Source: Propionibacterium ruminifibrarum (GTDB lineage: Bacteria; Actinomycetota; Actinomycetes; Propionibacteriales; Propionibacteriaceae). Taken from it: a stretch of 32,000 nt of DNA. Of the stretch, positions 5,115-24,984 are shown one piece after another. The stretch spans positions 326,697 to 358,696 of the forward strand of contig NZ_OMOH01000003.1 in the NCBI RefSeq assembly GCF_900289195.1. The letters run 5' to 3'. The stretch's first letter is position 1. The number at the start of each line of letters is the position of its first letter. The notes under the pieces are model-generated. The model did not search any database, was not told the origin of the DNA, and worked only from the letters and a program-made list of their open reading frames with translations. The position numbers were made by a program, and so were the translations under genes.

Positions 5115-6101
5115 TCAGTCGCCGACGATGGCCCGGGCCGTCGCGGCGTCCAGAACGACATCGGTCATGAGCCCGGCCTCCAGGACCGTGCTGATGGCCG
5201 GGGCCTTGGCCGGGTCCGCCGCGACGAGCAGTCGCTGCCTGATGCGGCGCAGCTCGTCGAAGGGGAGCCCGGTCGATCTTTCGTTGACGTTGATCTTGTC
5301 GGTGCTGGCATCGGTGCGGAAGAAGATGCCGCCGAGGTTGCCCACGACGTGCTCGCGCTCCATCTGCGCCATGTCGGCGCTGGTCAGGTAGCCGGAGTCG
5401 TACAGGTGGCCCGGCAGGTCACCGTCCGGCGTGCCGACACTGGTCAACAGCAGGTCGGCCTCGGCCCGCAGCGTGAGGACCTGCTGGATCGACTTCTCCT
5501 GCCACATCGCGGCGCGCGTGTTCGCCGAGTCGAAGAACGCCGGCACGGGGAAGTAGTGCACCCGGGCGTCGAACGCGCTGCCGATGCGGTCGAGGATGAG
5601 GCTGGCGTAGTTCGTGCCGAGGGTGGCCACATTGCCCGAGCCGTGCAGCTGGACGACCTGCATGTCCTGAACGGGGTGCGGGCGCAGCTGCAGTGAGATG
5701 TTCTCGACGGTGCTGCCCCAGGCGACGTCGAGGATCACCCCGGGCCGGACGAAGGCATCGAGCCAGGCCGCGGCCTGACTGGCGACGGCCAGCATGCGCG
5801 CCGAGGCCCTCTGCGGCTGCTCGACCGGGGCGACGATGGCGCGTACCCCGTAGCGCTGTTCGACCTGGCGGCGCAGCAGGTCGATGGGATTCTCGTCCCG
5901 GTGCACGGTGAACTGGATGATGCCCGTCTCGCGGGCCTTGGCCAGCATGCGCGAGACCGTGGAGCGCGAGACCCCGAGCTGGGCGCCGACCTCCTCGACC
6001 TTCTTGCCCTGCACCCAGTAGAGCTCGGCCGCGTCGGCCAACCTGGCCCGCTCCAGGGGCCGCAGTGCCCTGCGCGGCCGGTTCGGCTGTTCGGTCGTCA
6101 T
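5115..6101 (-). CDS. SorC/DeoR-type sugar-binding transcriptional regulator
   Basis: N-terminal HTH LGVSRSTVSRMLAKARETGIIQFTV plus a long C-terminal sugar-binding-type domain. I prefer ATG 6101 (AGGAAG about 8 nt upstream) to the ORF-track start at 6161. The gene is divergent from the MFS operon. Confidence 0.8.
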   Translation of the reverse strand: MTTEQPNRPRRALRPLERARLADAAELYWVQGKKVEEVGAQLGVSRSTVSRMLAKARETGIIQFTVHRDENPIDLLRRQVEQRYGVRAIVAPVEQPQRASARMLAVASQAAAWLDAFVRPGVILDVAWGSTVENISLQLRPHPVQDMQVVQLHGSGNVATLGTNYASLILDRIGSAFDARVHYFPVPAFFDSANTRAAMWQEKSIQQVLTLRAEADLLLTSVGTPDGDLPGHLYDSGYLTSADMAQMEREHVVGNLGGIFFRTDASTDKINVNERSTGLPFDELRRIRQRLLVAADPAKAPAISTVLEAGLMTDVVLDAATARAIVGD

Positions 6102-6321
6102 ACGGGTGGCTTCCTGGATCGGGGACGGCTGGCGCTCAGCCTCGTCACTGAGACGAGCCAAGCATAACGCTGCACTGTCAACAATGCGACATTTTCCCGT
6201 TCTTCTTACAAATGACCCTCCTTGTGGCGCAAAAGGTGAGAAATTGTGTAAGCTGCGTCTGCATCGAGGTTCGCCCCGAGCAGTCCTTCACTGTTCGTCA
6301 CTCACACATCGAGGTACGTGC

Positions 6322-7677
6322 ATGTCATCGCCGACATCCATCACGACCGAACGTCCCACGCACTACCGGTGGGTTGTTCTCACGGTCATCTTCATCACCT
6401 ACGTGATCTGCATGGCGGACCGCTCCAACATCGGAGCCGTCCTGCCGATGATCAAGGGAGAGTTCGAGATCTCCAACTTCGCGTCCGGCGCCATCTCGAG
6501 CTTCTTCTTCCTCGGCTACGCGATCTCACAGATCCCGGCCGGCCTGGTCATGACCAAGAAGGGCACCCGGCACATCGTCTCGCTGGCCGTCCTGCTCTTC
6601 TCGATCATCACCTTCTGCATGGGTTTCGCGACCACCGCCGTGGCGCTGCTCGTCCTGCGCCTGCTGCTCGGTCTCATGGAGGGGCCGACACCCGTCGGCA
6701 TGACGTCCACGGTGAACGCCTGGTTCCCGCCGAAGGAGAAGGGCACCGCCACCGGCGTCTACATCGCCTCGACGCAGTTCGCCCCGATCATCGTGCCGAT
6801 CATCGCCGTCGCACTGGCCAACGCCCACGGCTGGCGTTCGGTGTTCCACTGGTTCGCCGTGCCCGGCGTGATCATGGCCGTCGTCTTCTTCCTCGTCCAG
6901 CGCACCCGTCCGAGTGAGTCCAAGCGCGTCAACGCGGCAGAGCTCGCCCACATCAACGACACCAGCGTCTCCGACGTGAAGAAGAAGGCCGACTTCGGCG
7001 ACATGGGGTGGATCGACCGCCTCATCCGGCTGCGCGACGTCAAACCGCTCGACACCAACGGCAAGATCATGCGGTCGTGGAACATCTGGGGCAATACGAT
7101 CGCCTACTTCTTCATGAACAACGTGCTGTACGGCATGCTCACCTGGATCCCCTCGTACCTGGTCGCCGCCCGCGGCTACAACTTCATCAAGATGGGCTTC
7201 GTCGCCTCCGCCCCGTCGATCGGCGGCCTGATCGGCGCCCTCATCGGCGGCATCGTCTCCGACCGCGTCTTCCGCGGGCGCCGCAAGCCCACCATGCTCA
7301 TCACCGCCCTCATGACCGCCGTCATGATGGTCATCGTGCTCGTCGTCCCGCAGAACACCGTCCTGGTCGTCGGCTCGCTGATCCTCACCGGCTTCTTCCT
7401 CAACATCGGGTGGCCCATGTTCACCGCCTACGCGATGAACCTGACGACCGACGAGACCTATCCCTTCGCCATCTCGGTCATCAACTCCGGCGGCAACCTG
7501 GGCGGCTTCTTCGCCCCGATCATCGTCGGGGCCCTGCTGGATGCCTTCTCCGGTAACTACACGGTGGCCTTCAGCTACTTCGTCGTGGTCCTGATCATCG
7601 GCCTCGTGCTGATCCTGACCCTCACCGAGGCCCGTCCGCAGTCCAAGCCGGAGGCCGCGGCAGCGGCGCAGGCCTGA
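6322..7677 (+). CDS. MFS transporter, anion:cation symporter (ACS) type (acid-sugar permease)
   Basis: Multi-TM hydrophobic profile. ADRSNIGAVLPMI and GYAISQIPAG motifs are as in hexuronate/glucarate/galactonate-type MFS. I set the start at ATG 6322 (MSSPTSI). The 72 upstream codons of the track ORF cover the AT-richer divergent promoter and do not look coding. Confidence 0.85.
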   Translation: MSSPTSITTERPTHYRWVVLTVIFITYVICMADRSNIGAVLPMIKGEFEISNFASGAISSFFFLGYAISQIPAGLVMTKKGTRHIVSLAVLLFSIITFCMGFATTAVALLVLRLLLGLMEGPTPVGMTSTVNAWFPPKEKGTATGVYIASTQFAPIIVPIIAVALANAHGWRSVFHWFAVPGVIMAVVFFLVQRTRPSESKRVNAAELAHINDTSVSDVKKKADFGDMGWIDRLIRLRDVKPLDTNGKIMRSWNIWGNTIAYFFMNNVLYGMLTWIPSYLVAARGYNFIKMGFVASAPSIGGLIGALIGGIVSDRVFRGRRKPTMLITALMTAVMMVIVLVVPQNTVLVVGSLILTGFFLNIGWPMFTAYAMNLTTDETYPFAISVINSGGNLGGFFAPIIVGALLDAFSGNYTVAFSYFVVVLIIGLVLILTLTEARPQSKPEAAAAAQA

Positions 7678-7717
7678 TCTCTGCAACGATGGACCCTGCA
7701 CAAGGAGGTGCCCAGAG

Positions 7718-9100
7718 ATGGCGAATGTTGGAATCGTCGCCGATGACCTGACCGGCGGGACGACGGTCGGCGCGCTCATCGCCCGCGAGGGCGTGCCCGC
7801 CACCGTGTTCTTCGACCCGTCATACGTCGAGACGACGCCCCTGCCGGACAACGCCGCGGCGATCGTCAGTACCGACTCACGTGCCATGCCCGCAGAGGTG
7901 GCCTACGACCGGGTGCGCAGGGCAACCCTGACCCTCAAGGGCAGGGGAGCCACGATGTTCGCCAAACGCATCGACACCACGGTCCGCGGCGGCGTGGGGC
8001 CCGAGGTCGAGGGCATGCTCTCCGCGCTCGGCCCCGACTACATGGCGGTCATCGTGCCGGCCATGCCCCAGTCGCGGCGGGTCGTCCTCGAGGGTTACTC
8101 GCTCATCGACTCGGTGCTCCTGACCCGTACCGGCGTCGCCCAGGACGTGCGCACGCCGGTACGGGAGGCCCATCTGCCCACCCTCTTCAAGGCGCAGTTC
8201 AAGGCGAAGCTCGGCCATGTGAACATCAAGCCCGTCATGGCTGGCAAACAGGCCATCAAGCATGAACTCGTCGAGTTGCGCCGCGAGGGCACCAGGATCT
8301 TCCTCATGGACGCGCTGAGCATCGACGACGTCGACCAGATCGCCCAGGCGGTCGTCGACCTCGGCTGGAGGATCGTCTGCGTCGACCCGGGGCCGTTCAC
8401 CGATCGTGTCGCCGTGCACTCAGGGGCCATCGAGCCGGCGGAGGTGCCCCAGCGCGTCACCCGTATCGACCCGGTGCCGGGCGAGACGGGCACTGTTCTC
8501 GTCGTGGCGGGCAGCGCCACCAAGGTGACGCACAACCAGATCACCCGGCTCACCCGGGAGCCCGGGGTCGTCACGCTCTCGATCGACGTCCTGGCGATGC
8601 TCGACAAGGACACCAGTGTCTACGAGGCCGAGTGCCGCAGGGCCGAGGCCGAGGCGAGGCGCCTGCTCGATGAGGCAGCCACGCCGCCTCGCGTGATGGT
8701 CTGCGCGCTCGACACCGTCTACGCCGGCACCACCACCCCGAAAGCCGTCATGGAGGAGCTGTCCGGTCTCACTGGCCCCGAACCGGCCAAACAGCTCACC
8801 GTCCGCTTCGGCGGCCTTGCCCGGCGCATCCTCGACGTGCTCGGAGCGGAGGACTGCGCCGGTGTCTACCTCACCGGCGGTGACGTCATGGTCGCCAGCT
8901 GCGAGGCCTTCGAGGCCAAGGGCATTACGCTGGTCGACTACGTCATCCCGCAGATCGACCAGGGAACCATCACCGGTGGCCCCTTCGAGGGGCTGCCCGT
9001 CGTCTGCAAGGGCGGTCTGACCGGCACCGAGGTCACCGCCATCCAATCTGTCAACCGAATCCTCGACGAAAGGATGCGCACTCATGGCGCAAACGCGTAA
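7718..9100 (+). CDS. Four-carbon acid-sugar kinase family protein (DUF1537; OtnK/DtnK/DenK-like)
   Basis: N-terminal IVADDLTGGTTVGALI is the family signature. AAGGAGG lies 9 nt upstream of the ATG. The gene overlaps the next gene by 17 nt. Confidence 0.85.
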   Translation: MANVGIVADDLTGGTTVGALIAREGVPATVFFDPSYVETTPLPDNAAAIVSTDSRAMPAEVAYDRVRRATLTLKGRGATMFAKRIDTTVRGGVGPEVEGMLSALGPDYMAVIVPAMPQSRRVVLEGYSLIDSVLLTRTGVAQDVRTPVREAHLPTLFKAQFKAKLGHVNIKPVMAGKQAIKHELVELRREGTRIFLMDALSIDDVDQIAQAVVDLGWRIVCVDPGPFTDRVAVHSGAIEPAEVPQRVTRIDPVPGETGTVLVVAGSATKVTHNQITRLTREPGVVTLSIDVLAMLDKDTSVYEAECRRAEAEARRLLDEAATPPRVMVCALDTVYAGTTTPKAVMEELSGLTGPEPAKQLTVRFGGLARRILDVLGAEDCAGVYLTGGDVMVASCEAFEAKGITLVDYVIPQIDQGTITGGPFEGLPVVCKGGLTGTEVTAIQSVNRILDERMRTHGANA

Positions 9101-10118
9101 GCCCGTCATGGCGATCACCATGGGCGATCCCGCCGGCATCGGCCCGGAGATCACCCTCAAGACCATCCAGGACAAGCGGATCTACGACATCTGTGATCCC
9201 TTCATCATCGGCAGCGCCGACTCCCTTCAGCAGGCGGCCGAGATCCAGGGGGTCAAGGACCTGGACATCAATGTCATCACCGAGCCCGAGCAGGCACGGA
9301 ACCAGTACGGCACCATCGACCTGCTCGAGACCGGCGTCGAGCCCGACGCCCAGATCGAGTTCGGTCAGATCCAGGTCGCGGCGGCCAAGCGGGCCTACTC
9401 CTACATCGAGAAGTCCATCGAACTCGGCATGGCCGGCCGGATCGACGGCGTTTCCACCGCGCCGATCAACAAGGCGGCCCTCAAACAGGCCGAGGTGCCC
9501 TACATCGGGCACACCGAGATCTACCAGGCCCTCACGAACTCGCCCTACGCCCTGACGATGTTCAACGTGCACAAGCTGCGTGTCTTCTTCGTCAGCCGCC
9601 ACGTCTCGCTGCGCGAGGCCTGCGACCTGGCCAACCACGACCGCATTCTCGAATTCCTCAAGAACATCGACACCGAACTGAAGAAGTTCGGTTTCGAGCA
9701 CCCGTCGATCGGCGTCGCGGCCCTCAACCCGCACGTCGGCGAGGGTGGTCTGTTCGGCACCGAGGAGATCGAGCACATCGCCCCGGCCGTCAAGGACGCC
9801 CAAGGGCTAGGCATCAATGCCCACGGCCCGGACTCGGCCGACGCGATCTTCGCGTTCAACCTCGACGGCCACTACGACGCCATTCTGTCGATGTACCACG
9901 ACCAGGGGCACATCGCCTGCAAGACGCTGGACTTCCAGAACGCCGTCACCCTGACCCTCGGCCTGCCCTTCATGCGCAGCTCGGTCGATCACGGGACAGC
10001 GTTCGACATCGCAGGCAAGGGCATCGCCCAGGGCGAGTCGATGATCGAGTCCACCCGCGTGGCCGCCGTCTACTCCCAGATGCAGATCGACGCGAAGGCC
10101 AAGGCGGAGCAGTCCTGA
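9084..10118 (+). CDS. pdxA2: PdxA-family NAD-dependent dehydrogenase, PdxA2 type (4-phospho-tetronate dehydrogenase/decarboxylase)
   Basis: Motifs GDPAGIGPEI, GHTE, NPHVGEGG, GPDSAD, YHDQGHI and VDHGTAFDIAGKG. Coupling to a DUF1537 kinase is the context described for PdxA2 rather than the PLP-biosynthetic PdxA. ATG 9108 is an alternative start. Confidence 0.8.
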   Translation: MAQTRKPVMAITMGDPAGIGPEITLKTIQDKRIYDICDPFIIGSADSLQQAAEIQGVKDLDINVITEPEQARNQYGTIDLLETGVEPDAQIEFGQIQVAAAKRAYSYIEKSIELGMAGRIDGVSTAPINKAALKQAEVPYIGHTEIYQALTNSPYALTMFNVHKLRVFFVSRHVSLREACDLANHDRILEFLKNIDTELKKFGFEHPSIGVAALNPHVGEGGLFGTEEIEHIAPAVKDAQGLGINAHGPDSADAIFAFNLDGHYDAILSMYHDQGHIACKTLDFQNAVTLTLGLPFMRSSVDHGTAFDIAGKGIAQGESMIESTRVAAVYSQMQIDAKAKAEQS

Positions 10119-10160
10119 GGCGCTCGCCCGCAGAACCCGCCCGCTGACCGTCCTATAGGG

Positions 10161-10201
10161 TTGACGGCGGGGCCGGCACTGAGGCCGGAACCCGCCGTCA
10201 A
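10161..10201 (+). terminator. Stem-loop downstream of the pdxA2-like gene (terminator or intra-operon attenuator)
   Basis: TTGACGGCGGG (10161-10171) pairs perfectly with CCCGCCGTCAA (10191-10201). No U-tract. The RpiB-like gene starts 70 nt later. Confidence 0.45.
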
Positions 10202-10270
10202 CCGTGGGGCGGTCCTGGGCATCCAGCTCACACGCACACCGTCCGTGACGAGGAGAGGACACAACACATC

Positions 10271-10708
10271 ATGAAGCTCATCTTCGGCTGCGATCCCAAC
10301 GCCACCGAGTTCAAGAAGGGCCTGATGGCCAAGGCCGTCGAGCTCGGCCACGAGGTCGAGGACTACGGCGCCGACGACCCGATCTACGCCAACGTGGCCA
10401 CCAAGGTCGCCGAGGACGTCGTGGCGGGCAAGGCCGATCGCGGTGTCGTCGTCTGCGGCACCGGCATCGGCGTCTCGATCGCCGCCAACAAGGTCAAGGG
10501 CGCCTACTGCGCCTGCGTCGCCGACGTCTACCAGGCCCAGCGGGCCACCCTGTCGAACAATGCGAACCTGATCGCCATGGGCTCGCAGGTGCTCGGCATC
10601 GAGACGGCCAAGGTCCTGCTCGAGAACTACCTGGCCAACGAGTTCGACCCCAACTCGCGCAGCGGCGTCAAGGTCGCGCGTATCCGCGAATACGAGAACG
10701 AGCACTGA
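10271..10708 (+). CDS. RpiB/LacA/LacB-family sugar-phosphate isomerase
   Basis: 145 aa. VVVCGTGIGVSIAANKVKG carries the catalytic-Cys motif, and size and layout are typical of RpiB. RBS GAGGAGAGGA lies upstream. Confidence 0.85.
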   Translation: MKLIFGCDPNATEFKKGLMAKAVELGHEVEDYGADDPIYANVATKVAEDVVAGKADRGVVVCGTGIGVSIAANKVKGAYCACVADVYQAQRATLSNNANLIAMGSQVLGIETAKVLLENYLANEFDPNSRSGVKVARIREYENEH

Positions 10709-10735
10709 GCGGTGCGGGGAAGCCGGGATCTGGAC

Positions 10736-11482
10736 ATGAGTGAACCGATCGTCGCGGTGAGTCTCAAGATGTACTTCGAGCGGGCCCGCACGCTCGACTA
10801 CGCCCGCTCGCTCGTCGAGCTGGTCGGCGCCGAACAGGGCCTGTCCGAGGCCGTGCGAATGGCCGTGCTGCCGGACTTCCTGACCATCGCCGAGGCCGGG
10901 ACCATTCTCAACGGCTCGGGCATCGTGCTCGGCGCCCAGGACCTCTGCCAGGACGACCGCGGTGCGCGCACCGGCGAGGTGTCAGGCGCCGACCTGGCGG
11001 CTCTCGGCGTCGGGGTCGTCGAGGTGGGCCACGCCGAGCGCCGAACGATCTACCGCGAGGACGATGCGATGGTCGCCGCGAAGACCGCGGCGGCCGTCCG
11101 CAACGGCATCATCCCACTGCTGTGCATCGGTGAGGCCGAGCGCTCCACCGAGGCGGAGGCGGCCGCCAAGTGCATCGCCCAGGTGCGCTCCGCCCTGGCC
11201 GGTACCCGGCCGGACGATCTCTGGCTCGGTTACGAGCCCTACTGGGCGATCGGCGCTCCGGCTCCGGCGCCGTCCGAGTACGTCTCGGGCGTGTGTCGTC
11301 TGATCCGCGAGGGTCTCGGCGACGTGCCCGGCCTGAGCCTGCTGTACGGCGGCTCGGCCGGCCCCGGCCTGCTCGGTACGCTCGACCCGGCGATCGATGG
11401 CCTCTTCCTGGGACGCTTCGCCCACGACCCGGCCGCCTTCGTCTCGGTCGCCAAGGAGGCCCGTGACCGCGCGGTGGTCTGA
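10736..11482 (+). CDS. Triosephosphate-isomerase-family protein (TpiA paralogue / tetrulose-phosphate isomerase-like)
   Basis: SLKMY (cf. NWKMN), VEVGHAERR (cf. GHSERR) and LLCIGE (cf. CIGE). I chose ATG 10736 by N-terminal length relative to TpiA; GTG 10712 is the track alternative. Confidence 0.8.
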   Translation: MSEPIVAVSLKMYFERARTLDYARSLVELVGAEQGLSEAVRMAVLPDFLTIAEAGTILNGSGIVLGAQDLCQDDRGARTGEVSGADLAALGVGVVEVGHAERRTIYREDDAMVAAKTAAAVRNGIIPLLCIGEAERSTEAEAAAKCIAQVRSALAGTRPDDLWLGYEPYWAIGAPAPAPSEYVSGVCRLIREGLGDVPGLSLLYGGSAGPGLLGTLDPAIDGLFLGRFAHDPAAFVSVAKEARDRAVV

Positions 11483-11652: not shown

Positions 11653-12384
11653 TCACATCTGGGCCGTGAGGCGTTTCGTCGCGGTTCTCATGTGGGCCCG
11701 CATGGCCTGTTCGGCGGCCTCGACGTCGTGTTTCTCGAGTGCCCGCAGGATCTTCTCGTGCTCGCCCAGGGACTCGACGGCGTCGGCCACGCTGCTCAGT
11801 GCCCGATCCATCCAGATGCTCAGCAGGGTGCGGCAGGTGCGCAGCATGTCGGCGGTCAGGGTGTTGCCGCAACTGTCGACCAGGATGACGTGGAAGCGGT
11901 AGTCGATGGGGATGGTCTTCTGCACGTCGGGGAGTGCCTCGCGCATTGATTCGATGTTGTCCTGGAGCAGGCCGATGGCCTGCTCGTCGGCGCGTTCGGC
12001 GGCCAGACGTGCCGCCTCGACCTCGAGTGCCGAACGGACCTCGAGCAGCTGCTGCGTGTCGTGCTCGCCGAGCAGCATGCCCCAGGTCAGCGTCTTGGGC
12101 AGCAGATCCGATGTCGTGCCGCGCACGTACGTGCCCGCCCCGGGGCGCACTTCGACCAGGCCCAGCAGCTCGAGGGCGGCGAGCGCCTCGCGGACGGCCG
12201 AGCGCCCCACCCCCAGCTTCTCTGCCAGTGCGCGCTCCGGCGGCACCCGATCGCCCGTCGACAGGGGGCCGGTGCCGAAGTGAGCCAGCAGGTGCTGAGC
12301 GACCTCGGCGGCCGTGGTCCCGCGGGGGAGCGTCGACATCTCCTGGAGGAACTCGTCGGCAGGGCCGGATGCGTATGCGGGCAT
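11653..12384 (-). CDS. GntR/FadR-family transcriptional regulator
   Basis: Winged HTH ERALAEKLGVGRSAVREALAALELLGLVEVRPGAGTYV followed by an all-helical FCD-type C-terminal domain. No clear SD before ATG 12384, so the transcript may be leaderless or the start may be internal. Confidence 0.85.
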   Translation of the reverse strand: MPAYASGPADEFLQEMSTLPRGTTAAEVAQHLLAHFGTGPLSTGDRVPPERALAEKLGVGRSAVREALAALELLGLVEVRPGAGTYVRGTTSDLLPKTLTWGMLLGEHDTQQLLEVRSALEVEAARLAAERADEQAIGLLQDNIESMREALPDVQKTIPIDYRFHVILVDSCGNTLTADMLRTCRTLLSIWMDRALSSVADAVESLGEHEKILRALEKHDVEAAEQAMRAHMRTATKRLTAQM

Positions 12385-12441
12385 GCCGTCAATCTACTAG
12401 GCGTGACGTGGCCGGTGCCGAGCACGAAAAGATTACATGTT

Positions 12442-12477
12442 AACCGGTTGACAGGTTTACCGGTGTTCTTCTAATCT
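12442..12477 (+). promoter_or_regulatory. Candidate promoter with overlapping operator for the second MFS operon
   Basis: TTGACA (12448-12453), an 18-nt spacer, then TAATCT (12472-12477). The palindromes AACCGGTT (12442-12449) and ACCGGT (12459-12464) overlap the -35 box and the spacer. The site lies in the divergent GntR/MFS intergenic region. Confidence 0.45.
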
Positions 12478-12539
12478 CGTCCCCATACCGACGCCGCGCA
12501 GCGTTGCGCGAGTCGTCCGAACGATGACGAGGAGGTCAC

Positions 12540-13871
12540 GTGTCGAGTGCTACAACCGTGAACCCGGCTGCTGAGAAGTCGGCGGTTCACAAGATCTCCG
12601 TGCGGCTGGTGCCATTCGTCGCACTGATGTTCTTCATCAACTTCCTCGATCGCACTGCGATCGGTTATGCGGGCCCCAACGGGATGCAGCAGGACCTGGG
12701 CATGACGGCCGCCCAGTTCGGCCTGGCCTCGGGGGTGTTCTTCATCGGGTACATCATTCTTGAGGTCCCCTCGAACCTGGCGCTGCACCGATTCGGCGCC
12801 AGGGTCTGGCTGTCGCGCATCATGGTGTCGTGGGGCATCGTCGCCGTCCTGTTCACCTGGGTCCAGTCCAGCGGCCAGCTGTACGCCCTGCGTGTCCTGC
12901 TCGGCGTCGCCGAGGCCGGCTTCTTCCCCGGGGCCATCCTGTTCCTGAGCATGCTGGTGCCCTCGCAGCATCGCAGCCGTACCCTCATGCTCTTCTACCT
13001 GGCCCAGCCGCTCACCAGCGTGGTCGGGGCCCCGCTGGCCAGCTGGCTCATCCAGCACCACGGCGCCCTCGGGCTCGAGGGCTGGCGCTTCATGTACCTG
13101 TGCGTCGGCGCTCCGGCCATCATCGTCGGCATCGTCGCCTTCTTCTATCTGAAGGACAAGCCAGAGGACTGCCCATGGCTCACCGCGGAGGAGGTCGCGA
13201 GCCTTCGCACTCAGCTGGATGCCGAGGCTGCGGCCAACAGCGGCGAGAAGGGTGAGAAGAACGTCGTGGCCGCGCTCACCAGTGGCCGGGTGTGGGTCCT
13301 CTCGCTCATCTACTTCGGCTTCATCTACGGCCTGTACGCCCTGAGCTTCTTCCTGCCCACGATCATCAAGGGCTTCGGCGAACAGTTCGGCATCGAGTTG
13401 TCGATCCTCCAGCAGGGCCTGGTCACGGCCATCCCGTACGCCTTCGCCGCCCTCGCCATGTACGTCTGGTCGAAGGACGTCACCCGTCGCGGCCTGCGCA
13501 GCTGGCACATCGCCATTCCCGCCGCCATCGGCGGTGTCTCGATCCCGGTCGCCCTGTTCGTCGGTTCGCCGGTCATCGCCATCGGGGTCATCTCGATCAC
13601 CGCCATGTCGATCTTCGCCGTGCTGCCGAACTTCTGGACGCTTCCCACGCAGTTCCTCACAGGAGCCCCCGCGGCTGCCGGCGTCGCCCTCATCAACACG
13701 ATCGGCAACATCGCCGGGTTCTCGGCCGGATACATCACCGGCGCGATCCATGACTGGACCGGCGGCTACACCGTCCCGATGTTCGTCGTCGGCGGCTTCA
13801 TGATCGTGTCCGCGACGCTCATGGTCCTGCTGGCCCGTCGCGGCCAGGTGAGGGTCGCCGACGCCTCCTGA
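12540..13871 (+). CDS. MFS transporter, ACS type (tartrate/acid-sugar transporter-like)
   Basis: GTG start with GAGGAGG 4-5 nt upstream. FINFLDRTAIGYAGP and GYIILEVPSNLALHRFGAR motifs and a multi-TM profile, as in TtuB/galactonate-type permeases. Confidence 0.85.
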   Translation: MSSATTVNPAAEKSAVHKISVRLVPFVALMFFINFLDRTAIGYAGPNGMQQDLGMTAAQFGLASGVFFIGYIILEVPSNLALHRFGARVWLSRIMVSWGIVAVLFTWVQSSGQLYALRVLLGVAEAGFFPGAILFLSMLVPSQHRSRTLMLFYLAQPLTSVVGAPLASWLIQHHGALGLEGWRFMYLCVGAPAIIVGIVAFFYLKDKPEDCPWLTAEEVASLRTQLDAEAAANSGEKGEKNVVAALTSGRVWVLSLIYFGFIYGLYALSFFLPTIIKGFGEQFGIELSILQQGLVTAIPYAFAALAMYVWSKDVTRRGLRSWHIAIPAAIGGVSIPVALFVGSPVIAIGVISITAMSIFAVLPNFWTLPTQFLTGAPAAAGVALINTIGNIAGFSAGYITGAIHDWTGGYTVPMFVVGGFMIVSATLMVLLARRGQVRVADAS

Positions 13872-13909
13872 TCGTCAGGGGCCGGGAAACTGGAAAGGAA
13901 GTGAGGACA

Positions 13910-14722
13910 ATGGGCCTGGGGATCGGCACCTACGCCCTGTTCTGGGAGTGGTCTGAGGCGGTCGAGCATCCCATCGACCTGACGGGCATGCTCGACGTGG
14001 CGGCCGAACTCGACTGCGATGTCTTTCAGATCTGCGACTACCCGCTCATCGAGACGATGGACGTCCATCAGCTGAACGACATCGCCGCCCAGGCTCGTGG
14101 GCTGGGCCTGGAGCTCGAGCTGGGCACCCGTGGCACACGCTCCGAGCACCTGAACAGGTACCTGGACATCGCCGAGACGCTGGGCGCCCACATGCTGCGC
14201 TCCATGGTGCGCGTGGGCGCCGGCGAACCCACACTCGACGAGTCCCTCGCCTCGGTCCGGGGACTGCTGGCGCGGCTCCACGAGAACGGCGTCTCGATCG
14301 CCTTCGAGACCTATGAACAGCTGCCCAGCGAGCGTCTCGTGCAGTTCGTGACCGATGTCAACGATCCGCACGTCGGCATCTGCCTCGACCCCGCCAACTG
14401 CGTCGCCGGGCTCGAACTGCCCGGTGACGTGATCGGTCGCTGTGCGCCGTACACGCTCAACCTGCACGTGAAGGACTTCGCCTTCACCCGCCAGGCGGGC
14501 TGGGTGGGGTTCACCTACGCGGGGGCGGCGATGGGGGAGGGGCTGCTCGACTTCGACGCCGAGATGAAGGCGGTCCGTCCCCTCGAACGGGGCATCAACA
14601 TGATCGTCGAGCACTGGCTCACCTGGCAGGGCGACCCGAAGTCCACCGTCGCGCTGGAGCGGCAGTGGACACGCCGGAGCCTCGACTACATCCGCAACTA
14701 CATCGAAACCAAGGAGAACTGA
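13910..14722 (+). CDS. Sugar-phosphate isomerase/epimerase (xylose-isomerase-like TIM barrel, AP_endonuc_2 type)
   Basis: About 270 aa with an alternating beta/alpha pattern and metal-ligand-like motifs (FETYE, ICLDPANC, LHVKDF, IVEHW). I prefer ATG 13910, with GGAAAGGAAG 9 nt upstream, to GTG 13901. Confidence 0.7.
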   Translation: MGLGIGTYALFWEWSEAVEHPIDLTGMLDVAAELDCDVFQICDYPLIETMDVHQLNDIAAQARGLGLELELGTRGTRSEHLNRYLDIAETLGAHMLRSMVRVGAGEPTLDESLASVRGLLARLHENGVSIAFETYEQLPSERLVQFVTDVNDPHVGICLDPANCVAGLELPGDVIGRCAPYTLNLHVKDFAFTRQAGWVGFTYAGAAMGEGLLDFDAEMKAVRPLERGINMIVEHWLTWQGDPKSTVALERQWTRRSLDYIRNYIETKEN

Positions 14723-14725
14723 ACC

Positions 14726-15580
14726 ATGAGTGAGAACCTGAAGATCGCAGTCGTCGGCGCCGGCGGCAAGATGGGCATGCGCGTGTCCAACAACCTGCAG
14801 CGCACCGACTGGACCGTGTTCTACTGCGAGAACGGTGAGGCCGGGAGGCAGCGCGTGCAGGAGGCGGGCCGCGAGGTCGTGCCGACCGACGATGTCATCG
14901 GTGACGTCGACGTCGCGATCCTGGCCGTGCCCGACGTGGCCCTTGAGCCCGTCACCGCCGACGTCGTCCCCAAGATGAAGTCCGGCGCCATGGTGCTGAC
15001 CCTCGACCCGGCGGCGGCCTATGCCGGCCTGCTGACCATGCGCGATGATCTCGACTATGTCGTGGCCCACCCCACGCATCCGTCGGTGTTCCTCGAGCGC
15101 CACACGCCGGAGGAGTACGCCGACACCTTCGGTGGTGTTGCCGCCCCGCAGAACTCGGTCGCGGCGCTGCAGCAGGGCGACGAGTCGATCAAGCCGCTCG
15201 CCGAGAAGATCATCTCGACCATGTACGGTCCGGTCATCAAGGTCTACTGGACCTCGGTGCACGACCTGGCCGTGCTCGAACCCACCCTCAACGAGACCAT
15301 CGGCTGCATGATCGGCCAGTTCCTCAAGGACGCCATCGACGCCACGGTATGCCACACCGACATGGACGAGGCGACCGTGACAGCCATGATCCATGGCCAC
15401 ATCTGGATCGCCCTGACCAATGCCCTGCGCGGCTCGAACCCGTTCTCGGACGCCTGCCTGCTGGCCATGGACTACGGCCGCGAGGCCATCATCAAGGACG
15501 ATTGGGAACGCATCTTCAACGATGACGACCTCGACATCGTCATCGCCAAGATGCTCAAGCTCGACAAGGTCAGGCACTGA
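14726..15580 (+). CDS. NAD(P)-binding oxidoreductase (Rossmann N-domain plus 6PGDH-C-like helical domain)
   Basis: KIAVVGAGGKMG dinucleotide-binding motif at the N-terminus. AAGGAGAA RBS is present. The ATG lies 3 nt after the upstream stop. Substrate unknown. Confidence 0.65.
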   Translation: MSENLKIAVVGAGGKMGMRVSNNLQRTDWTVFYCENGEAGRQRVQEAGREVVPTDDVIGDVDVAILAVPDVALEPVTADVVPKMKSGAMVLTLDPAAAYAGLLTMRDDLDYVVAHPTHPSVFLERHTPEEYADTFGGVAAPQNSVAALQQGDESIKPLAEKIISTMYGPVIKVYWTSVHDLAVLEPTLNETIGCMIGQFLKDAIDATVCHTDMDEATVTAMIHGHIWIALTNALRGSNPFSDACLLAMDYGREAIIKDDWERIFNDDDLDIVIAKMLKLDKVRH

Positions 15581-15605
15581 CCGACTGTCGGATCGGCGAA
15601 GAAAG

Positions 15606-15641
15606 AGGGATGGTGGTCTCGTCAAGGAGGCCACCATCCCT
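15606..15641 (+). terminator. Intra-operon stem-loop between the oxidoreductase and the DAK-type kinase
   Basis: A 15-bp stem: AGGGATGGTGGTCTC pairs with GAGGCCACCATCCCT (one G-U pair). Loop is GTCAAG. The 3' arm and loop contain AAGGAGG. It is followed by TATATCCTGT. Confidence 0.45.
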
Positions 15642-15719
15642 ATATCCTGTAGGAACTAACCCTATGGTTCGGGCCGCTGGGCCCTCAACGATGAGCACAA
15701 CCATGAGATGGGAGAGACA

Positions 15720-17420
15720 ATGACGTACCTGGTTGGCGAGCCGCTGGATTTCGCGGCTGACAGTCTTGCGGGCTTCGTGGCCGCGCACTCTGATCTGGTC
15801 CAGGCGGTTCACGGTGGCGTGGTCCGCGCCGACGCCTCACCGCAGGGCGAGGTGGCCGTCGTCGTCGGCGGGGGTTCCGGTCATTACCCGGCGTTCGCGG
15901 GCTGGGTTGGCCCGGGCATGGCCCACGCTGCCGTCTGCGGCAACATCTTCGCCTCGCCGTCGGACTCGCAGGTCGTGTCGGTCTCGAGGGCGGCCGACAA
16001 CGGCGGGGGCGTCCTGCTGCTGTTCGGCAACTACGCCGGTGACTGCCTTCAGTTCGGCAAGGGTGCCGAGGTGCTCAACGCCGAGGGCATCGCCACACGC
16101 ATCGAGACGATCACCGATGACGTGGCCTCGCGCCCCGTCGAGCAGTGGGCCGAGCGCCGGGGCATCGCCGGTGACTTCTTTGTCGTCAAGATTGCCGGCG
16201 CTGCCGCCGCGGCGGGCTACGACCTCGACGGTCTCGTAGAGGCCACCCGTCGCGCGAACGCAGCCACCAAGACCCTGGGCATCGCCTTCGACGCCCCGAC
16301 CCTGCCCGGTGCTGCCGAGCCCCTGTTCACCGTGCCCGAGGGGCACTACGAACTCGGTCTGGGCATCCACGGCGAACCCGGCCTGTCCTCGCACCCGCTG
16401 AGCGGGGTCGATGATATCGCCAAGACCCTCGTCGAGGGCCTCCTCGCCGAGAAGCCTGCCGATGCGCGACGAGTCGGCGTCCTGGTCAACGGCCTGGGCT
16501 GCACCAAGTACGAGGAGATGTTCGTCCTGTACGGGCGAGTGGCTCGGCTGCTCGAGGCCGCCGGCTTGCAGATCGTCGTCCCGATCGTCGACGAACAGGT
16601 CACCAGTCTTGACATGGCCGGTGTCTCCCTGTCGGTCTGCTTCCTCGACGACGAGCTCGAGAAGCTCCTGCTCGCCCCGGCTCTGACACCGGCCTACACC
16701 CGTGGCGCCGTTGAACACGGCGGTCCTCGGCGCGAGGTCTCCACCGAGGAGAGCGCCGAGCTGGCGGCCGGTTCGCCGGAGTCGGCGGCGCAGGGCGCCA
16801 GACTCGCCACGATCGTGGCCCTCATGGCCGAGACGGCCGTAGCCGATGCCGACTTCCTCGGCAGGCTCGACTCCATCGCCGGCGACGGCGATCACGGGCA
16901 GGGCATGGTGCTCGGTTCGCGTGCCGCGGCGAAGGCTGCTGCTGTCGCCTCGGATGCGGGGGCCGGTGCCGCGACAGTCCTGAAGCAGGCGGGTCTGGCA
17001 TGGGCGGAAGGCGCAGGAGGCACCTCGGGGGCGTTGTGGGGTCGCGCGCTCGAGGCCGTGGGTGCGGGCCTGTCCGATGACGCGGCGGCCGATGCGGCCA
17101 CAGTGATCGCCGCTGTCGCAGCCGGTGCCGAATCCGTGGCTGCCAGCGGCGGCGCCGTGCCAGGCGACAAGACGATGGTCGACGCCACTACTCCGTTCGC
17201 CGTTGCGCTGCGCGATGCCGGTGATGACCTGCCGGGCGCCTTCGCCACCGCGGCCAGGGCCGCCACTGACGGGGCAGAGGCGACCAAGGACCTCGTGGCC
17301 CGCAAGGGCCGCGCCACGACGCACGGCGACGCCTCACTCGGCCATCCCGACCCGGGGGCGATCTCCTTCGCCCGCCACATGACGAGGATTGCTGAGTACC
17401 TGGCCGATCATCAGGCCTGA
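15720..17420 (+). CDS. Fused DhaK-DhaL (DAK-family) ATP-dependent kinase with non-canonical substrate-site motif
   Basis: DhaK domain (VVVGGGSGHYPAF, ELGLGIHGEPG) fused to a DhaL domain (DSIAGDGDHGQGM, GGTSGALWG). ATG 15708 is an in-frame alternative start. Confidence 0.85.
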   Translation: MTYLVGEPLDFAADSLAGFVAAHSDLVQAVHGGVVRADASPQGEVAVVVGGGSGHYPAFAGWVGPGMAHAAVCGNIFASPSDSQVVSVSRAADNGGGVLLLFGNYAGDCLQFGKGAEVLNAEGIATRIETITDDVASRPVEQWAERRGIAGDFFVVKIAGAAAAAGYDLDGLVEATRRANAATKTLGIAFDAPTLPGAAEPLFTVPEGHYELGLGIHGEPGLSSHPLSGVDDIAKTLVEGLLAEKPADARRVGVLVNGLGCTKYEEMFVLYGRVARLLEAAGLQIVVPIVDEQVTSLDMAGVSLSVCFLDDELEKLLLAPALTPAYTRGAVEHGGPRREVSTEESAELAAGSPESAAQGARLATIVALMAETAVADADFLGRLDSIAGDGDHGQGMVLGSRAAAKAAAVASDAGAGAATVLKQAGLAWAEGAGGTSGALWGRALEAVGAGLSDDAAADAATVIAAVAAGAESVAASGGAVPGDKTMVDATTPFAVALRDAGDDLPGAFATAARAATDGAEATKDLVARKGRATTHGDASLGHPDPGAISFARHMTRIAEYLADHQA

Positions 17421-17725: not shown

Positions 17726-18022
17726 TGATCGGAGGGACATATGCACACGACGGATGCATGGCGCATCGGGTGCACGACATCGCCCCATGCGCACGCTGGG
17801 GATGGCCAGGTTGCTGACCGGATGGTTCTTGGTCCTGGGCCCCACCTGCTGAATCGCAGCACGCGAGTCGGGCTCGGCGAGGCAGACACCGTGGTGTGCT
17901 CCGCGTCTCAGAAAAGATGGGGCCATGCGCTCTGAAGCGCCATGGCCTCGTTCACACCAGTCGCCGAAACGGGCGGCGGGTTCACCAAGTTTTAGTTCAG
18001 CTATGTGACAAGGAGGTCCATC

Positions 18023-19402
18023 ATGGCGGGAGAACTGACTTCTCGTGTGGCGCCAGATGAAGCGACCGTGAACAGTGCCCTTGGCAAGGTGACCAAGCAT
18101 CTCATCCCATTCCTGTTACTCATGTACGTGATTGCGTTCGTTGACCGGACAAATCTTGGCTGGGCGCAACAGGAATGGGAGGCTAACTATGGGATATCCA
18201 CCGCTGCCTACACATTCGGCGCCACTTTGTTCTTCGTGGGCTACGCCGTCTTCGAGGTGCCTTCGAACCTGATCATGCACAAGGTCGGGGCGCGCTGGTG
18301 GATGACCAGGATCATGATCACATGGGGCATCGTGGCGGCATGCTTCATGTTCGTCCAAGGACCCAAGACTTTTTATGCCCTTCGATTCCTGCTGGGTGTC
18401 GCCGAAGCCGGCTTCTTCCCCGGTGTGATGTTGTACCTGACTTACTGGTACCCTGCTGCCCGCAGGGCATGGGCGACCGGGCTGTTCTACATGGGGCTAC
18501 CCATCGCCAATATGTTCGGGAATCCCCTGTCCGGGAGCCTGCTGGAGCTCGACGGTGTTCTGGGTATGGACGGCATCCACTGGATGTTTCTGGTCGAAGG
18601 AGCATTGGCCGTGGTCGTCGGCATTATCTGCCCGTGGGTTCTCGTCGATCGTCCCAGCAAGGCGTCATGGTTGACTGAAGAGGAGCAGCGGGACCTCACC
18701 CAGCAAATCGAACTCGAGGAAGCGGCAAAGCAAAAGGCCAAGCCGATCAGTTGGGGAAGGGCACTGGCAGATCCACGCATCCTCTATTTCTGCCTGATCT
18801 ACTTCTGCATCCAGGCCTCTGTCTATGGACTTACGTTCTTCTTGCCGAAACAGGTCACCTCGATGACTGGCACGACGGCAGGTTTCAAAGCATCACTTGT
18901 CACCGCGATCCCATGGGTGGTTGCTCTCATCGGAGTCCTCATTGTCCCCAAAGTCGCTGACCGGCGACAGAACCACCGTTTGCTGTCGGGGCTCATGCTG
19001 GCCTTCTCTGGAATGGGGATCATGGGATCCGCACTGTTTCTTCATCAGCTCGTGCCGGCGCTGGCGCTGCTGTCCATTGCGGCGATCGGCTTCACCTGTG
19101 CGCAACCCATCTTCTGGCAGCTCCCGACCAGGTACCTCAGTGGTGCGGCACTCGCCGGTGCCACTGGCTTGATCAATGCCGTCGGAAACCTGGGCGGTTG
19201 GGCTGCTCCGCTGCTGCGTACTTGGGCGACTCAGAGCGCATTCGGCACCGCAGACAGCCCAAATGAAGCGGCTGGTCTCGTGGTGCTCGGCATGGCGGGT
19301 GTCGTCGGTGTTCTGCTCGTCACCGGACTCAATTTCTTCAAGAAATCAGTAGAAGAACGTGAAGCTCTTTCCCTGCAGAGCGGGGAATCCTTGGACAAGT
19401 GA
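18023..19402 (+). CDS. MFS transporter, ACS type (L-rhamnonate transporter RhmT-like)
   Basis: AAGGAGG lies 6 nt upstream of ATG 18023. FVDRTNLGWAQ and GYAVFEVPSNLIMHKVGAR motifs and a multi-TM profile. First gene of the rhm-like cluster. Confidence 0.8.
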   Translation: MAGELTSRVAPDEATVNSALGKVTKHLIPFLLLMYVIAFVDRTNLGWAQQEWEANYGISTAAYTFGATLFFVGYAVFEVPSNLIMHKVGARWWMTRIMITWGIVAACFMFVQGPKTFYALRFLLGVAEAGFFPGVMLYLTYWYPAARRAWATGLFYMGLPIANMFGNPLSGSLLELDGVLGMDGIHWMFLVEGALAVVVGIICPWVLVDRPSKASWLTEEEQRDLTQQIELEEAAKQKAKPISWGRALADPRILYFCLIYFCIQASVYGLTFFLPKQVTSMTGTTAGFKASLVTAIPWVVALIGVLIVPKVADRRQNHRLLSGLMLAFSGMGIMGSALFLHQLVPALALLSIAAIGFTCAQPIFWQLPTRYLSGAALAGATGLINAVGNLGGWAAPLLRTWATQSAFGTADSPNEAAGLVVLGMAGVVGVLLVTGLNFFKKSVEEREALSLQSGESLDK

Positions 19403-19437
19403 ATCATGGAGAATATCTGACAAGGAGGATTGGAAAG

Positions 19438-20220
19438 ATGAAAGAGTATCAGAAGGCTGTATTCCCAGATCGTCACACGGCCGTTGTGAGTGGTGCGGGA
19501 GCACCTCGAGGGATCGCCCGCAAGACTGCCCACAGGCTAGCCGCCGAGGGCTGGGACATCGTGGTTGTCGATCTTTCCGACAAGGTGTTGGAGTTCGGGG
19601 ATGAACTTGCCCGGGAATATCCTGAGCAAGACTCCCTGGCAATCCAGCTCGACATCTCTGACGAGAATCAGGTGAAAAATGCCTTCGCTCGGATCAAATC
19701 GGAGATGCCGCCCGTGGTTGGTCTTGCAAATATCGCGGGAATTGCCTGTCCTGTGCCGTTGCTCGAACTGGACGCCGCGCTCTTCGACAAGGTTCTGGCG
19801 GTCAACTGCCGCGGCACGATGTTGATGATGAAGTACGCGGCTGAGCATATGAAAGAATATGGGATCGGACGTATCGTCAACTTCTCGTCCATTACTGCTC
19901 TGGATGGCGGAGGCACTTTCTCGAAATTCGCATATGCGGCGGCAAAGGCTGGGGTTCTTGGCATTACCAAGGGTGGTGCTCGAGAACTCGGACCCTACGG
20001 CATTACAACCAATGCGGTTCTGCCCGGTCCGATCGACACCGACATCATGGGCGGTAAGCTCACGGACGAGCGCAAGAAGCAGATGTCCTCGAACATTCCA
20101 GTGGGTCGTGTCGGCCAGCCCGAGGAGATTGCTGCCGTGGTGTCCTTCCTCCTTTCTGCTGACGCCTCGTTCGTCAATGGCGTCTCGCTGAATGTTGACG
20201 GTGGTAAGCAGATGCACTGA
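19438..20220 (+). CDS. Short-chain dehydrogenase/reductase (SDR)
   Basis: AAGGAGG RBS before ATG 19438. Gly-rich VVSGAGAPRGIARK, NFSS, YAAAK (YxxxK) and PGPIDT motifs are present. Confidence 0.85.
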   Translation: MKEYQKAVFPDRHTAVVSGAGAPRGIARKTAHRLAAEGWDIVVVDLSDKVLEFGDELAREYPEQDSLAIQLDISDENQVKNAFARIKSEMPPVVGLANIAGIACPVPLLELDAALFDKVLAVNCRGTMLMMKYAAEHMKEYGIGRIVNFSSITALDGGGTFSKFAYAAAKAGVLGITKGGARELGPYGITTNAVLPGPIDTDIMGGKLTDERKKQMSSNIPVGRVGQPEEIAAVVSFLLSADASFVNGVSLNVDGGKQMH

Positions 20221-20229
20221 GTGGTATCT

Positions 20230-20265
20230 GGGTGGCGGGTCTTGCCTCAATAGTGCCCGCCACCC
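20230..20265 (+). terminator. Intra-operon stem-loop between the SDR and rhmD
   Basis: GGGTGGCGGG (20230-20239) pairs perfectly with CCCGCCACCC (20256-20265). The loop is 16 nt. Confidence 0.4.
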
Positions 20266-20294
20266 GGGGTACCTGAGAAACAGGAGGAGGGATC

Positions 20295-21503
20295 ATGACA
20301 CTTCCGACGATCACGGATATCCGTGCTTATTTCATGGGCGGAGCGAGTTCTTCGAGTGGCGGCCAAGGAGGTGGTGATTATCACGATCAAGGATCTGGGC
20401 ACTGGATTGACGATCACATCGCCACTCCGATGAGCAAGTATCCGCAATACGAACAGTCTCGTCAATCATTTGGCATAAACGTGCTTGGTACGCTTGTGGT
20501 TGAGGTCGAGGCAAGTGATGGGACGATTGGGTTCGCTATTTCTACGGCGGGCTTGATAGGCTGTTTCATAGCCGAGCATCATCTATCCAGGTTCCTCATC
20601 GGTCGGCGCGTTGATGACATCAAATTGATTCACGATCAGATGACCAACGCCACGCATTTCTATTCCGGTGGTGGTGGCGTTGTCATCAACACGATCTCAT
20701 GCATCGACTTGGCGCTGTGGGATTTGTTCGGCAAGGTTGTGCAGCAGCCCGTGTACAGCCTGCTGGGCGGTGCGGTGCGAGATGAGATTCAGTTCTATGC
20801 TACTGGTTCCCGTCCGGACTTGGCACGCGAGATGGGCTTCATTGGTGGCAAGATACCCACGCACTACGGACCGCATGACGGGGATGCGGGAATTCGGGCA
20901 GAGGTGGAGCGGGTCAAGAGGTTCAGGGGTCTGGTGGGGCCAGATTTCTGGCTCATGTTTGACTGCTGGATGAGTCAGGATGTCAATTATGCTGTCAAAC
21001 TTGCCCATGCAGTGGCTCCGTTCGGCGTGAAGTGGCTGGAAGAATCGTTCCCGGCTGCGCAATATGAGAGTTATGCTGCTTTGAAACGGCAGATGCCACC
21101 AGGGATGATGGTCACCTCTGGTGAACACACTGGAAACCTTGTCGCGTTCCGAACGTTGAGTGAAACAGGTATCGACGTCCTGCAGCCTGATGTGGGATGG
21201 TGCGGTGGTCTCACCTCGCTCGTGGAGATCGCGGCGATTGCGAAATCAAAAGGGCAACTTGTGGTGCCGCACGGTTCCTCCGTCTACTCCCACCATGCCG
21301 TGATCACGTTCGTGAACACTCCGTTCAGTGAATTTTTGATGACGAGCCCGGGTGCCGATGAGATCAGGCCCCAGTTCGATCCCCTCCTCGTCAATGAACC
21401 CGTTCCAGTTGACGGGCGGATCAGCAAAGCGGAACTCACGAAACCTGGCTTCGGAGTGGACCTCAATCGCGCATGCCCGCTTGAAAGGCCATTTGTGCAC
21501 TGA
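20295..21503 (+). CDS. rhmD: L-rhamnonate dehydratase (enolase superfamily)
   Basis: 402 aa. Long stretches ([84 protein letters not shown]) match my recollection of E. coli RhmD/YfaW nearly residue for residue. AGGAGGAGGG RBS is present. Confidence 0.9.
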
Positions 21504-21505
21504 CC

Positions 21506-22351: not shown

Positions 22352-22375
22352 TGTGAATGCTGGGAAGAGCTACTA

Positions 22376-24374: not shown

Positions 24375-24458
24375 TGGCAGACGCCCCGAGGCCCTCACCG
24401 GGCCGGCGTTTCCTCTCGTCGTGACTCAATTTATGCGCCTCCCACAAGGCATTTAACA

Positions 24459-24472
24459 TATATGATGATATT
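24459..24472 (+). promoter_or_regulatory. AT-rich TATATGATGATAT motif, site C (weaker relative of sites A and B)
   Basis: It shares TATATGAT with sites A and B. It lies in a 37%-GC pocket 85 nt after the DeoR stop and 526 nt upstream of the membrane-protein gene. Confidence 0.35.
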
Positions 24473-24984
24473 TGAAGCATTCTCAAAGGTGACATACCTC
24501 AGCCAAGCTGTTACTGTTCAGTCATGGAACAGGTCATGGCGGACCGCTCCGGGGGTGTGATGCTCGCCAGGGCGACAACTGGCGTACAGGGCGGCGTCTT
24601 CCCGGCAGTCAGGGCCAACGGGCTTCCGAGTGGCGATCGTTCGCTGAGAATTACCTTGCCAACAAGGATTTTAGGGTTGCCTGAGGTGCTCGGTCCGCGG
24701 TTCTCGTGTGCCGCCGCTGATGGGGGTGGGTTGAACTCGGAGTCATGGCCGGCCGTTGTTCCATGGGGCATGACGCCTCGTAACAGTATTTGTGATGATG
24801 GTATCGCTGATGCTGTTAATGACGTGTTCTCGTGGGTGGGGCTCGTTACGCGCATCGCACTGCCCACCCCGGTAAGCACCCCGTGACGGATTCAGTCGGC
24901 GCGTCACACCTCACGTGGTGAGCCCGCGCCACGCCTGACACCGGGCGCAACCCTGTCCACCACTGAACGAACAAAGGAACAAGG

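Follow-up and report, generated by a model that had tools for sequence, protein, structure and literature searches.

Why should a DUF1537 acid-sugar kinase and a PdxA-family protein share a gene cluster with a pair of sugar phosphate isomerases? The question is raised by a 32,000-nt window of the Propionibacterium ruminifibrarum genome (NZ_OMOH01000003.1, positions 326,697 to 358,696 of the forward strand; genome 2.78 Mb, 69% GC), in which a divergent regulator is followed by genes for a transporter of the major facilitator superfamily (MFS), the kinase, the PdxA protein, an RpiB-family protein and a triosephosphate isomerase (TIM) family protein. Coordinates are positions within this window. 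A sequence-only reading of the same DNA had assigned the two enzyme pairs to separate C4 pathways, neither needing the other, a view that comparison across genomes does not bear out: the pairs occur together in three phyla, and none of 30 control PdxA loci has the isomerases. The kinase/PdxA half and the isomerase half look coupled, and a C5 acid probably feeds an erythrulose phosphate through them. More tentatively, and with somewhat less than even confidence, we propose that the four enzymes constitute an undescribed kinase-first route from a branched C5 sugar acid through L-erythrulose 1-phosphate to erythrose 4-phosphate. We infer the reactions, the substrate and co-transcription from gene identities, clades, co-occurrence, motifs and the alternative feeders that were not found.

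Distribution of the gene set

PdxA and kinase rows were dereplicated at 90%; the clade of interest comprises 28 rows and the controls are 30 other PdxA rows, 20 of which have a detected kinase. The PdxA proteins form a clade with 100/100 support, as do the kinases, and the clade spans Actinomycetota, Bacillota and Gammaproteobacteria (including one Klebsiella pneumoniae record). Close relatives of the kinase (40-69%) are accompanied by PdxA, RpiB and TIM in the Klebsiella record, Oceanobacillus, Orbus mooreae, Clostridium ragsdalei, Bifidobacterium ESL0790, genomes resembling Micropruina and Raineyella, and many gut metagenome contigs. None of the claims made here depends on the unpublished genome G270.

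By strict motifs, LerI-type (TIM-family) and DerI-type (RpiB-family) genes both lie near 22 of the 28 clade loci, and both are near 19 of the 22 clade loci with at least 4 kb on both sides. Neither TIM nor RpiB was found near any of the 30 control PdxA rows, a bona fide DtnK locus (L197) included. A gene for transaldolase, transketolase or GlpX shows the same tendency (near 11/28 clade loci, 0/30 controls). This co-occurrence rules out chance adjacency within one genomic island. Gene order and orientation vary between the loci of Clostridium, Oceanobacillus, Orbus, Klebsiella and Bifidobacterium. At one locus (L139) both isomerases are 10-14 kb distant; the RpiB adjoining this locus and that adjoining L058 are of the housekeeping type and were dropped from the strict count. 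Regulators of the SorC or DeoR type repeatedly adjoin the clade loci, and the MFS gene is exchanged in some of them for KdgT or TRAP carboxylate transporters.

Assignment of the four enzymes

The most fitting assignment for the TIM and RpiB of the cluster is LerI and DerI, which would together convert L-erythrulose 1-phosphate to D-erythrose 4-phosphate. The window TIM has the TIM catalytic residues and the loop-8 Arg of LerI references, and it groups (99/98) with the TIMs of two other clusters, rpiB-MFS-dak-TIM-oiaC-apnO in Erwinia and a polyol cluster in Arthrobacter, not with TpiA. The motif criterion for LerI was set in this analysis on the basis of four reference loci and a single PDB entry, and the SLKMYF subtype seen in the window is tied to LerI through cluster context. 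The loop-8 Arg is present in 26 of 26 clade-partner TIMs, and the best PDB match of the Klebsiella TIM is an L-erythrulose-1-phosphate isomerase (217 versus 175 bits). Clade-partner TIMs span several separate LerI subtypes, even inside Propionibacteriaceae, which suggests repeated recruitment. The described substrate of LerI is L-erythrulose 1-phosphate (PMC10733421, PMC5468441).

The RpiB has the RpiB fold with an SN[ND] motif, and in lacking DHAG, HND and RH..RV it resembles the RpiB of a rhizobial ery cluster. Its identity to an ery-cluster RpiB is 50% (over a partial alignment), compared with 34% to the RpiB encoded elsewhere in its own genome, and the SN[ND]-type motif is common to 23 of 25 cluster RpiBs. 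It scores 130 against a cut-off of 240 with the rhizobial DerI model NF051858, which is lineage-specific. Canonical copies reside elsewhere, tpiA within gap-pgk-tpi on contig C32 and rpiB on contig C18, so the pair is not the housekeeping isomerases. The earlier view of the pair as EryH/EryI types is thus upheld by motifs, grouping and the separate canonical genes.

The kinase belongs to DUF1537 by fold and by both of its domains; its structural model (pLDDT 94.9) aligns with DUF1537 structures at 21-29% identity, and it is 93% identical to a P. australiense kinase. It scores 191 against a cut-off of 450 with the D-threonate kinase model (DtnK, NF047819), a gammaproteobacterial model whose miss alone is weak and which a Pantoea control passes at 520, and 135 against 350 with the 3-oxo-tetronate kinase model (OtnK, NF043035). 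The names DenK and OiaK are absent from its NCBIfam matches, and the kinase tree was built without characterised DenK and OiaK sequences. Changes typical of the clade (T16, M116, IPQxD) lie near the presumed substrate site.

PdxA membership is indicated by PF04166, three metal-binding His residues and the substrate Lys and Arg (H143, T144, H173, H217, H272, K280 and R298 are kept). The Thr before the metal His and the conserved Asn that mark PdxA2 are replaced in all 28 clade rows by R172 and T289, the latter position being Asn in canonical PdxA and PdxA2; the window protein also has C279 and S299, and C279 and S/A/G299 are confined to the clade. With the D-threonate-4-phosphate dehydrogenase model (PRK03371) it scores 282 against a cut-off of 583. 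The C4 assignment made in the earlier reading, D-threonate or D-erythronate, is not sustained, with both proteins below the D-threonate equivalog cut-offs.

R172 and T289 were discarded as markers of the isomerase link, for a sister group that lacks isomerases has them too. In this sister DUF1537/PdxA group (L193, L195, L202, L030, L182) the pocket shows the same Arg and non-Asn changes; an enterobacterial plasmid copy adjoins a KpsF/GutQ isomerase and an SLC13 permease. Separately, the kinases of Klebsiella pneumoniae (L134:11617-13335) and Orbus (L035:10001-11728) carry an N-terminal glucitol phosphotransferase system (PTS) EIIB domain. A single EIIA(gut) gene (L134:14449-14823), but no EIIC, accompanies it in the cluster; the fusion possibly reflects PTS control of the kinase or phosphorylation driven by phosphoenolpyruvate. 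The kinase region was not found among 5,426 E. coli genomes, in which the EIIB domain alone was matched.

A candidate route and its alternatives

In tetronate 4-phosphates PdxA2 oxidises the carbinol that adjoins the phosphate; C1 is lost and dihydroxyacetone phosphate (DHAP) results. L-Erythrulose 1-phosphate is DHAP plus one CH2OH, and therefore unchanged regiochemistry needs a tetronate that is branched at C2 by a CH2OH group, that is, 2-C-hydroxymethyl-tetronate (isoapionate, 2-carboxytetritol). This is the best-fitting substrate, and we regard it as possible. In the proposed route the MFS protein would import the branched acid, the kinase would phosphorylate its terminal CH2OH, and PdxA would oxidise the carbinol beside the phosphate with release of CO2, as PdxA2 does on D-threonate 4-phosphate, the extra CH2OH at C2 making the product erythrulose 1-phosphate in place of DHAP. 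LerI would then give D-erythrulose 4-phosphate and DerI D-erythrose 4-phosphate, which would enter the pentose phosphate pathway. The net balance would equal that of ApnO, OiaK and OiaX in altered order. The PdxA intermediate so predicted, 3-oxo-isoapionate 4-phosphate, is the known product of OiaK, and a substrate whose carboxyl-bearing carbon is quaternary is accepted by TphB, a member of the PdxA family.

All transporters of the clade loci are carboxylate types (ACS-family MFS, KdgT, TRAP), and the substrate is therefore expected to be an acid. A search of the PDB with the TRAP binding protein returned no close ligand-bound relative, and clustering of neighbouring open reading frames (ORFs) across the loci gave no conserved upstream enzyme from which the substrate could be named. 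The second branched option, D-apionate rearranged within PdxA, is rather improbable. Hamamelonate and 2-C-methyl-erythronate were set aside, since by our reasoning LerI and DerI could not both use the resulting products. The sequence-only reading was probably right to place the end point at erythrose 4-phosphate; the simplest chemistry joining the four enzymes begins, however, from a C5 acid, and a non-C4 substrate is what that reading had itself named as grounds for abandoning it.

Could the isomerases instead serve other pathways? An operon overlooked in the earlier reading begins 170 nt downstream of the TIM gene and corresponds to a D-apionate route: its members include an AP_endonuc_2 protein, a PGDH_C protein (best PDB match 5t57, E 6e-59, which we take to be an ApnO) and a fused DhaK-L. 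It has no LerI or DerI of its own, and because the genome's only LerI/DerI-type genes are those at 10271-11482, the isomerase pair probably serves also as a shared outlet of this operon in Propionibacterium. In described ApnO-OiaC-LerK routes the EryH-EryI genes are often located apart (PMC13753588).

The apionate operon was nevertheless rejected as the sole reason for the isomerases, ApnO not having been found in most carriers; a second role is kept for the pair in the host genome. ApnO is present in the host genome and, outside Propionibacterium, in three (G117, G029, G552) of 12 other carriers; Brachybacterium was among the genomes that gave a match. With the query used, to which all negatives for feeders are limited, six of the seven further Propionibacteriaceae that carry the four genes (98-100% complete genomes) gave no ApnO, nor did the Orbus, Bifidobacterium, Clostridium and Oceanobacillus carriers. 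Genomes without an ApnO match are G066, G122, G050, G137, G071, G148, G550, G551, G553 and G554. In the Bifidobacterium, Clostridium and Oceanobacillus carriers, whose genomes have only two TIMs, Dak/LerK, EryC and AraM-like queries also gave no match; the adjoining kinase and PdxA are therefore the sole known source of a LerI substrate there. Micropruina has ordinary DhaK only (38-43%), no EryC, and an AraM-like gene elsewhere.

Several considerations weigh against the proposed branched-acid route. No plentiful natural supply of isoapionate is known to us; the sole lead is carboxytetritol bisphosphate, which Rubisco forms as a minor by-product (PMC9833046). D-Apionate is more abundant, but PdxA would have to rearrange it in a way that has no precedent, and the host already has a separately regulated apionate operon. 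The comparison of 28 clade rows with 30 controls sets a clade seeded by a kinase search against a convenience sample, not a random one, and relatives are not independent. A Brooklawnia locus (L027) and one Anaerobutyricum locus have neither isomerase nearby, and DerI stands alone at a Brachybacterium locus (L034). Arg at 172 occurs in 9/30 and a residue other than Asn at 289 in 12/30 control PdxA rows. Other feeders could explain the isomerases in Propionibacterium and in Micropruina, whose AraM-like gene makes it a weaker case for the route. LerI has also been termed an L-erythrulose-4-phosphate epimerase (PMC12994016), which would favour linear L-pentonates.

A linear pentonate is an unlikely substrate. 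In this reading the kinase would phosphorylate C5 of D-arabinonate, D-ribonate, L-xylonate or L-lyxonate (matching C3), PdxA would yield erythrulose 4-phosphate and DerI erythrose 4-phosphate, with LerI an epimerase or a bystander. Such substrates are common and the PdxA pocket is altered; the DUF1537 kinase OtnK handles 3-oxo-gluconate, giving ribulose 5-phosphate, in a study that also connects LerI/DerI with C5 acids and identifies L-xylonate as a product of vitamin C (PMC12994016). D-Pentonates, however, need no LerI, yet LerI is near 22/28 loci; the phosphate would be one carbon further from the PdxA reaction centre; a one-base TIM mechanism is unlikely to epimerise L-erythrulose 4-phosphate; and L-erythrulose 1-phosphate is the LerI substrate named elsewhere (PMC10733421, PMC5468441).

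We assign a similarly low probability to the ordinary DtnK/DenK-PdxA2 route, in which D-threonate or D-erythronate yields DHAP and CO2 and the isomerases serve only neighbouring apionate, ribonate-type or polyol operons. The family assignments of kinase and PdxA agree with it, as do the lack of LerI/DerI in the adjoining ApnO-OiaC-LerK operon, a possible internal promoter ahead of rpiB and the position of the isomerases after LerK in a P. freudenreichii-like genome, and the tree lacks the characterised DenK pair. What argues against it is that the isomerases accompany the kinase/PdxA clade even in genomes that gave no match for another feeder, that they are absent near all 30 other PdxA loci, and that both proteins miss the DtnK and DtnD cut-offs.

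A streamlined erythritol route is improbable. Here the kinase would form D-erythritol 4-phosphate and a non-decarboxylating PdxA would form L-erythrulose 1-phosphate, the conversion described biochemically in Propionibacterium pentosaceum. The stereochemistry fits without EryC, PdxA has lost the conserved Asn, the Klebsiella and Orbus kinases bear the glucitol EIIB domain, and propionibacterial erythritol genes are unassigned, the old route passing through L-erythrulose 1-phosphate (PMC4437456). The transporters, however, are all carboxylate types, PdxA keeps K280 and R298, and K. pneumoniae is, as far as we know, usually erythritol-negative. Moreover, 21 of 21 P. freudenreichii strains use erythritol (PMC4437456), yet a complete P. 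freudenreichii-like genome (G072) has neither the kinase nor ApnO and carries LerI/DerI beside an FGGY/AraM polyol operon.

The two versions offered by the sequence-only reading, diversion of a C4 acid phosphate to erythrose 4-phosphate without decarboxylation or a dedicated drain of DHAP/glyceraldehyde 3-phosphate and pentose phosphates, are highly improbable: tal, tkt and glpX near 11/28 loci and a weak TIM activity that some LerI enzymes may retain would suit them, but neighbour-ORF clustering found no conserved reductase or aldehyde dehydrogenase, the TIMs are of LerI type, the RpiBs lack the ribose-5-phosphate isomerase motifs, and housekeeping copies are present.

Layout of the locus and relation to described pathways

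ORF and domain profile searches found all six genes of the earlier reading intact and at the positions it gave, with the 17-nt overlap of kinase and pdxA that it had reported (Table 1). Alignment with sister species places the likely starts of the MFS and TIM genes at 6322 and 10736, and that of sorC at the ATG at 6101, which is kept across those species. The ACS-family MFS is a probable sugar-acid importer.

Table 1. Features of the cluster and of the operon downstream, in window coordinates
Feature	Position	Strand	Basis
SorC/DeoR-family regulator, divergent	5115..6101	-	PF04198 (E 6.5e-49) and HTH; longest ORF to 6161
ACS-family MFS	6322..7677	+	TIGR00893 best, 227 bits, below cut-off
DUF1537 acid-sugar kinase	7718..9100	+	PF07005, PF17042
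PdxA-family oxidative decarboxylase (predicted)	9084..10118	+	PF04166; PRK03743 481 vs cut-off 470
GC-rich hairpin, no U-tract	10139..10220	+	fold of gap 10119-10270
RpiB-family protein, DerI type	10271..10708	+	PF02502; CDPN replaces DHAG, SNN replaces HND, no RH..RV, CGTG kept
TIM-family protein, LerI type	10736..11482	+	PF00121; K11, H99, E167 kept; SLKMYF and GRFAH motifs
GntR, MFS, OiaC-like, ApnO-like, LerK-like operon (D-apionate route)	11653-17420		domain searches

The hairpin noticed earlier ahead of the RpiB-like gene is real (-79.2 kcal/mol, z -4.6, 0/200 shuffles), with a perfect 13-bp core (10159-10171 / 10191-10203). It is only partially conserved in sister Propionibacterium species and, with no U-tract, poor conservation and no call as a terminator, it was rejected as an intrinsic terminator. 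The same gap holds a -10-like TAGGGT (10156-10161) whose context, CTATAGGRT (10150-10163), is kept in four Propionibacterium species while the gap otherwise varies; there is no clear -35. The rpiB-tim pair may thus have an internal promoter of its own.

Other genes of the same island (18005-23185: MFS, SDR, an L-rhamnonate dehydratase above cut-off, HpcH aldolase, GntR) form a non-phosphorylative rhamnose/rhamnonate module. In P. acidifaciens (L002:14117-19350) and a related metagenome-assembled genome (L003), about 5 kb beginning with a second SorC-type gene is inserted between tim and gntR. In Micropruina and Raineyella (L024:2359-7909; also L021, L022, L025), genes for DeoR, a Zn-dehydrogenase, a DhnA-type aldolase, an FGGY kinase and a 2-hydroxyacid dehydrogenase lie near the cluster. 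A pair of AP_endonuc_2 and 3-hydroxyacyl-CoA-dehydrogenase-like genes recurs near clusters (G000:C21:358716-360931, just beyond the window end; L020, L063, L138, L139) and possibly represents a ribonate-type route to D-erythrulose that shares DerI. In G072 (L224), LerK-LerI-DeoR-SDR-DerI precede a DUF7973-HAD-FGGY-AraM-AraB operon (cf. window 23538-31755), an arrangement that is a candidate for the propionibacterial erythritol/adonitol route through L-erythrulose 1-phosphate (PMC4437456).

Each gene family in the cluster is known; the cluster itself is real and conserved, and it probably represents a new form of acid-sugar catabolism. The DtnK/DenK plus PdxA2 route for D-threonate and D-erythronate, which Zhang et al. 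are said to have described in 2016, likewise uses a kinase-first DUF1537/PdxA pair of the same fold with an acid transporter and a SorC/DeoR regulator, and most PdxA metal and substrate residues are shared; the cluster differs in its separate clades, its low identity to the solved kinases, its sub-cut-off scores, its changed pocket motifs and its linkage to LerI, DerI and pentose-phosphate genes. The oxidative D-apionate routes, ApnO-OiaK-OiaX and ApnO-OiaC-LerK with LerI/DerI (Carter et al. 2018, cited through PMC13753588), also decarboxylate a C5 acid to erythrulose or its phosphate and use EryH/EryI to reach erythrose 4-phosphate, and one of them has a DUF1537 kinase. Unlike them, most carrier genomes yielded no ApnO and usually there is no RuBisCO-like decarboxylase, L038 being the one locus of those compared with such a gene nearby; in the proposed route oxidation and decarboxylation would both fall to PdxA and would come after phosphorylation. 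The tetritol routes of Brucella and rhizobia (EryH-EryI) and of Mycobacterium (LerI-DerI) share the isomerase types and motifs, whereas the cluster lacks EryABC, LerK and a polyol dehydrogenase and would be entered through an acid transporter. The earlier impression that the combination is uncharacterised stands: no paper coupling DUF1537/PdxA to LerI/DerI was found in literature searches, whose coverage did not extend to Zhang et al. 2016 and Carter et al. 2018, and an atlas search returned only generic DUF1537 clusters.

A pathway widespread in gut, soil and insect bacteria, Klebsiella pneumoniae among them, in which PdxA decarboxylates a branched C5 acid phosphate to L-erythrulose 1-phosphate, is our leading but still tentative interpretation, to which we give a little under even weight. 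A direct route to this compound is wanted for synthetic formaldehyde-assimilation cycles (PMC10733421). If the interpretation is correct, the labels pdxA, tpi, rpiB and four-carbon acid sugar kinase would be corrected in Klebsiella, gut Clostridia, Bifidobacterium, Bacillaceae and propionibacteria, and many gut bacteria would be predicted to use an unnamed carbon source. It would imply either that 2-carboxytetritol is a natural metabolite so far overlooked or that this PdxA rearranges D-apionate 4-phosphate as well, and it would extend two enzyme families, known chiefly from C4 acids, to new substrates and a new product.

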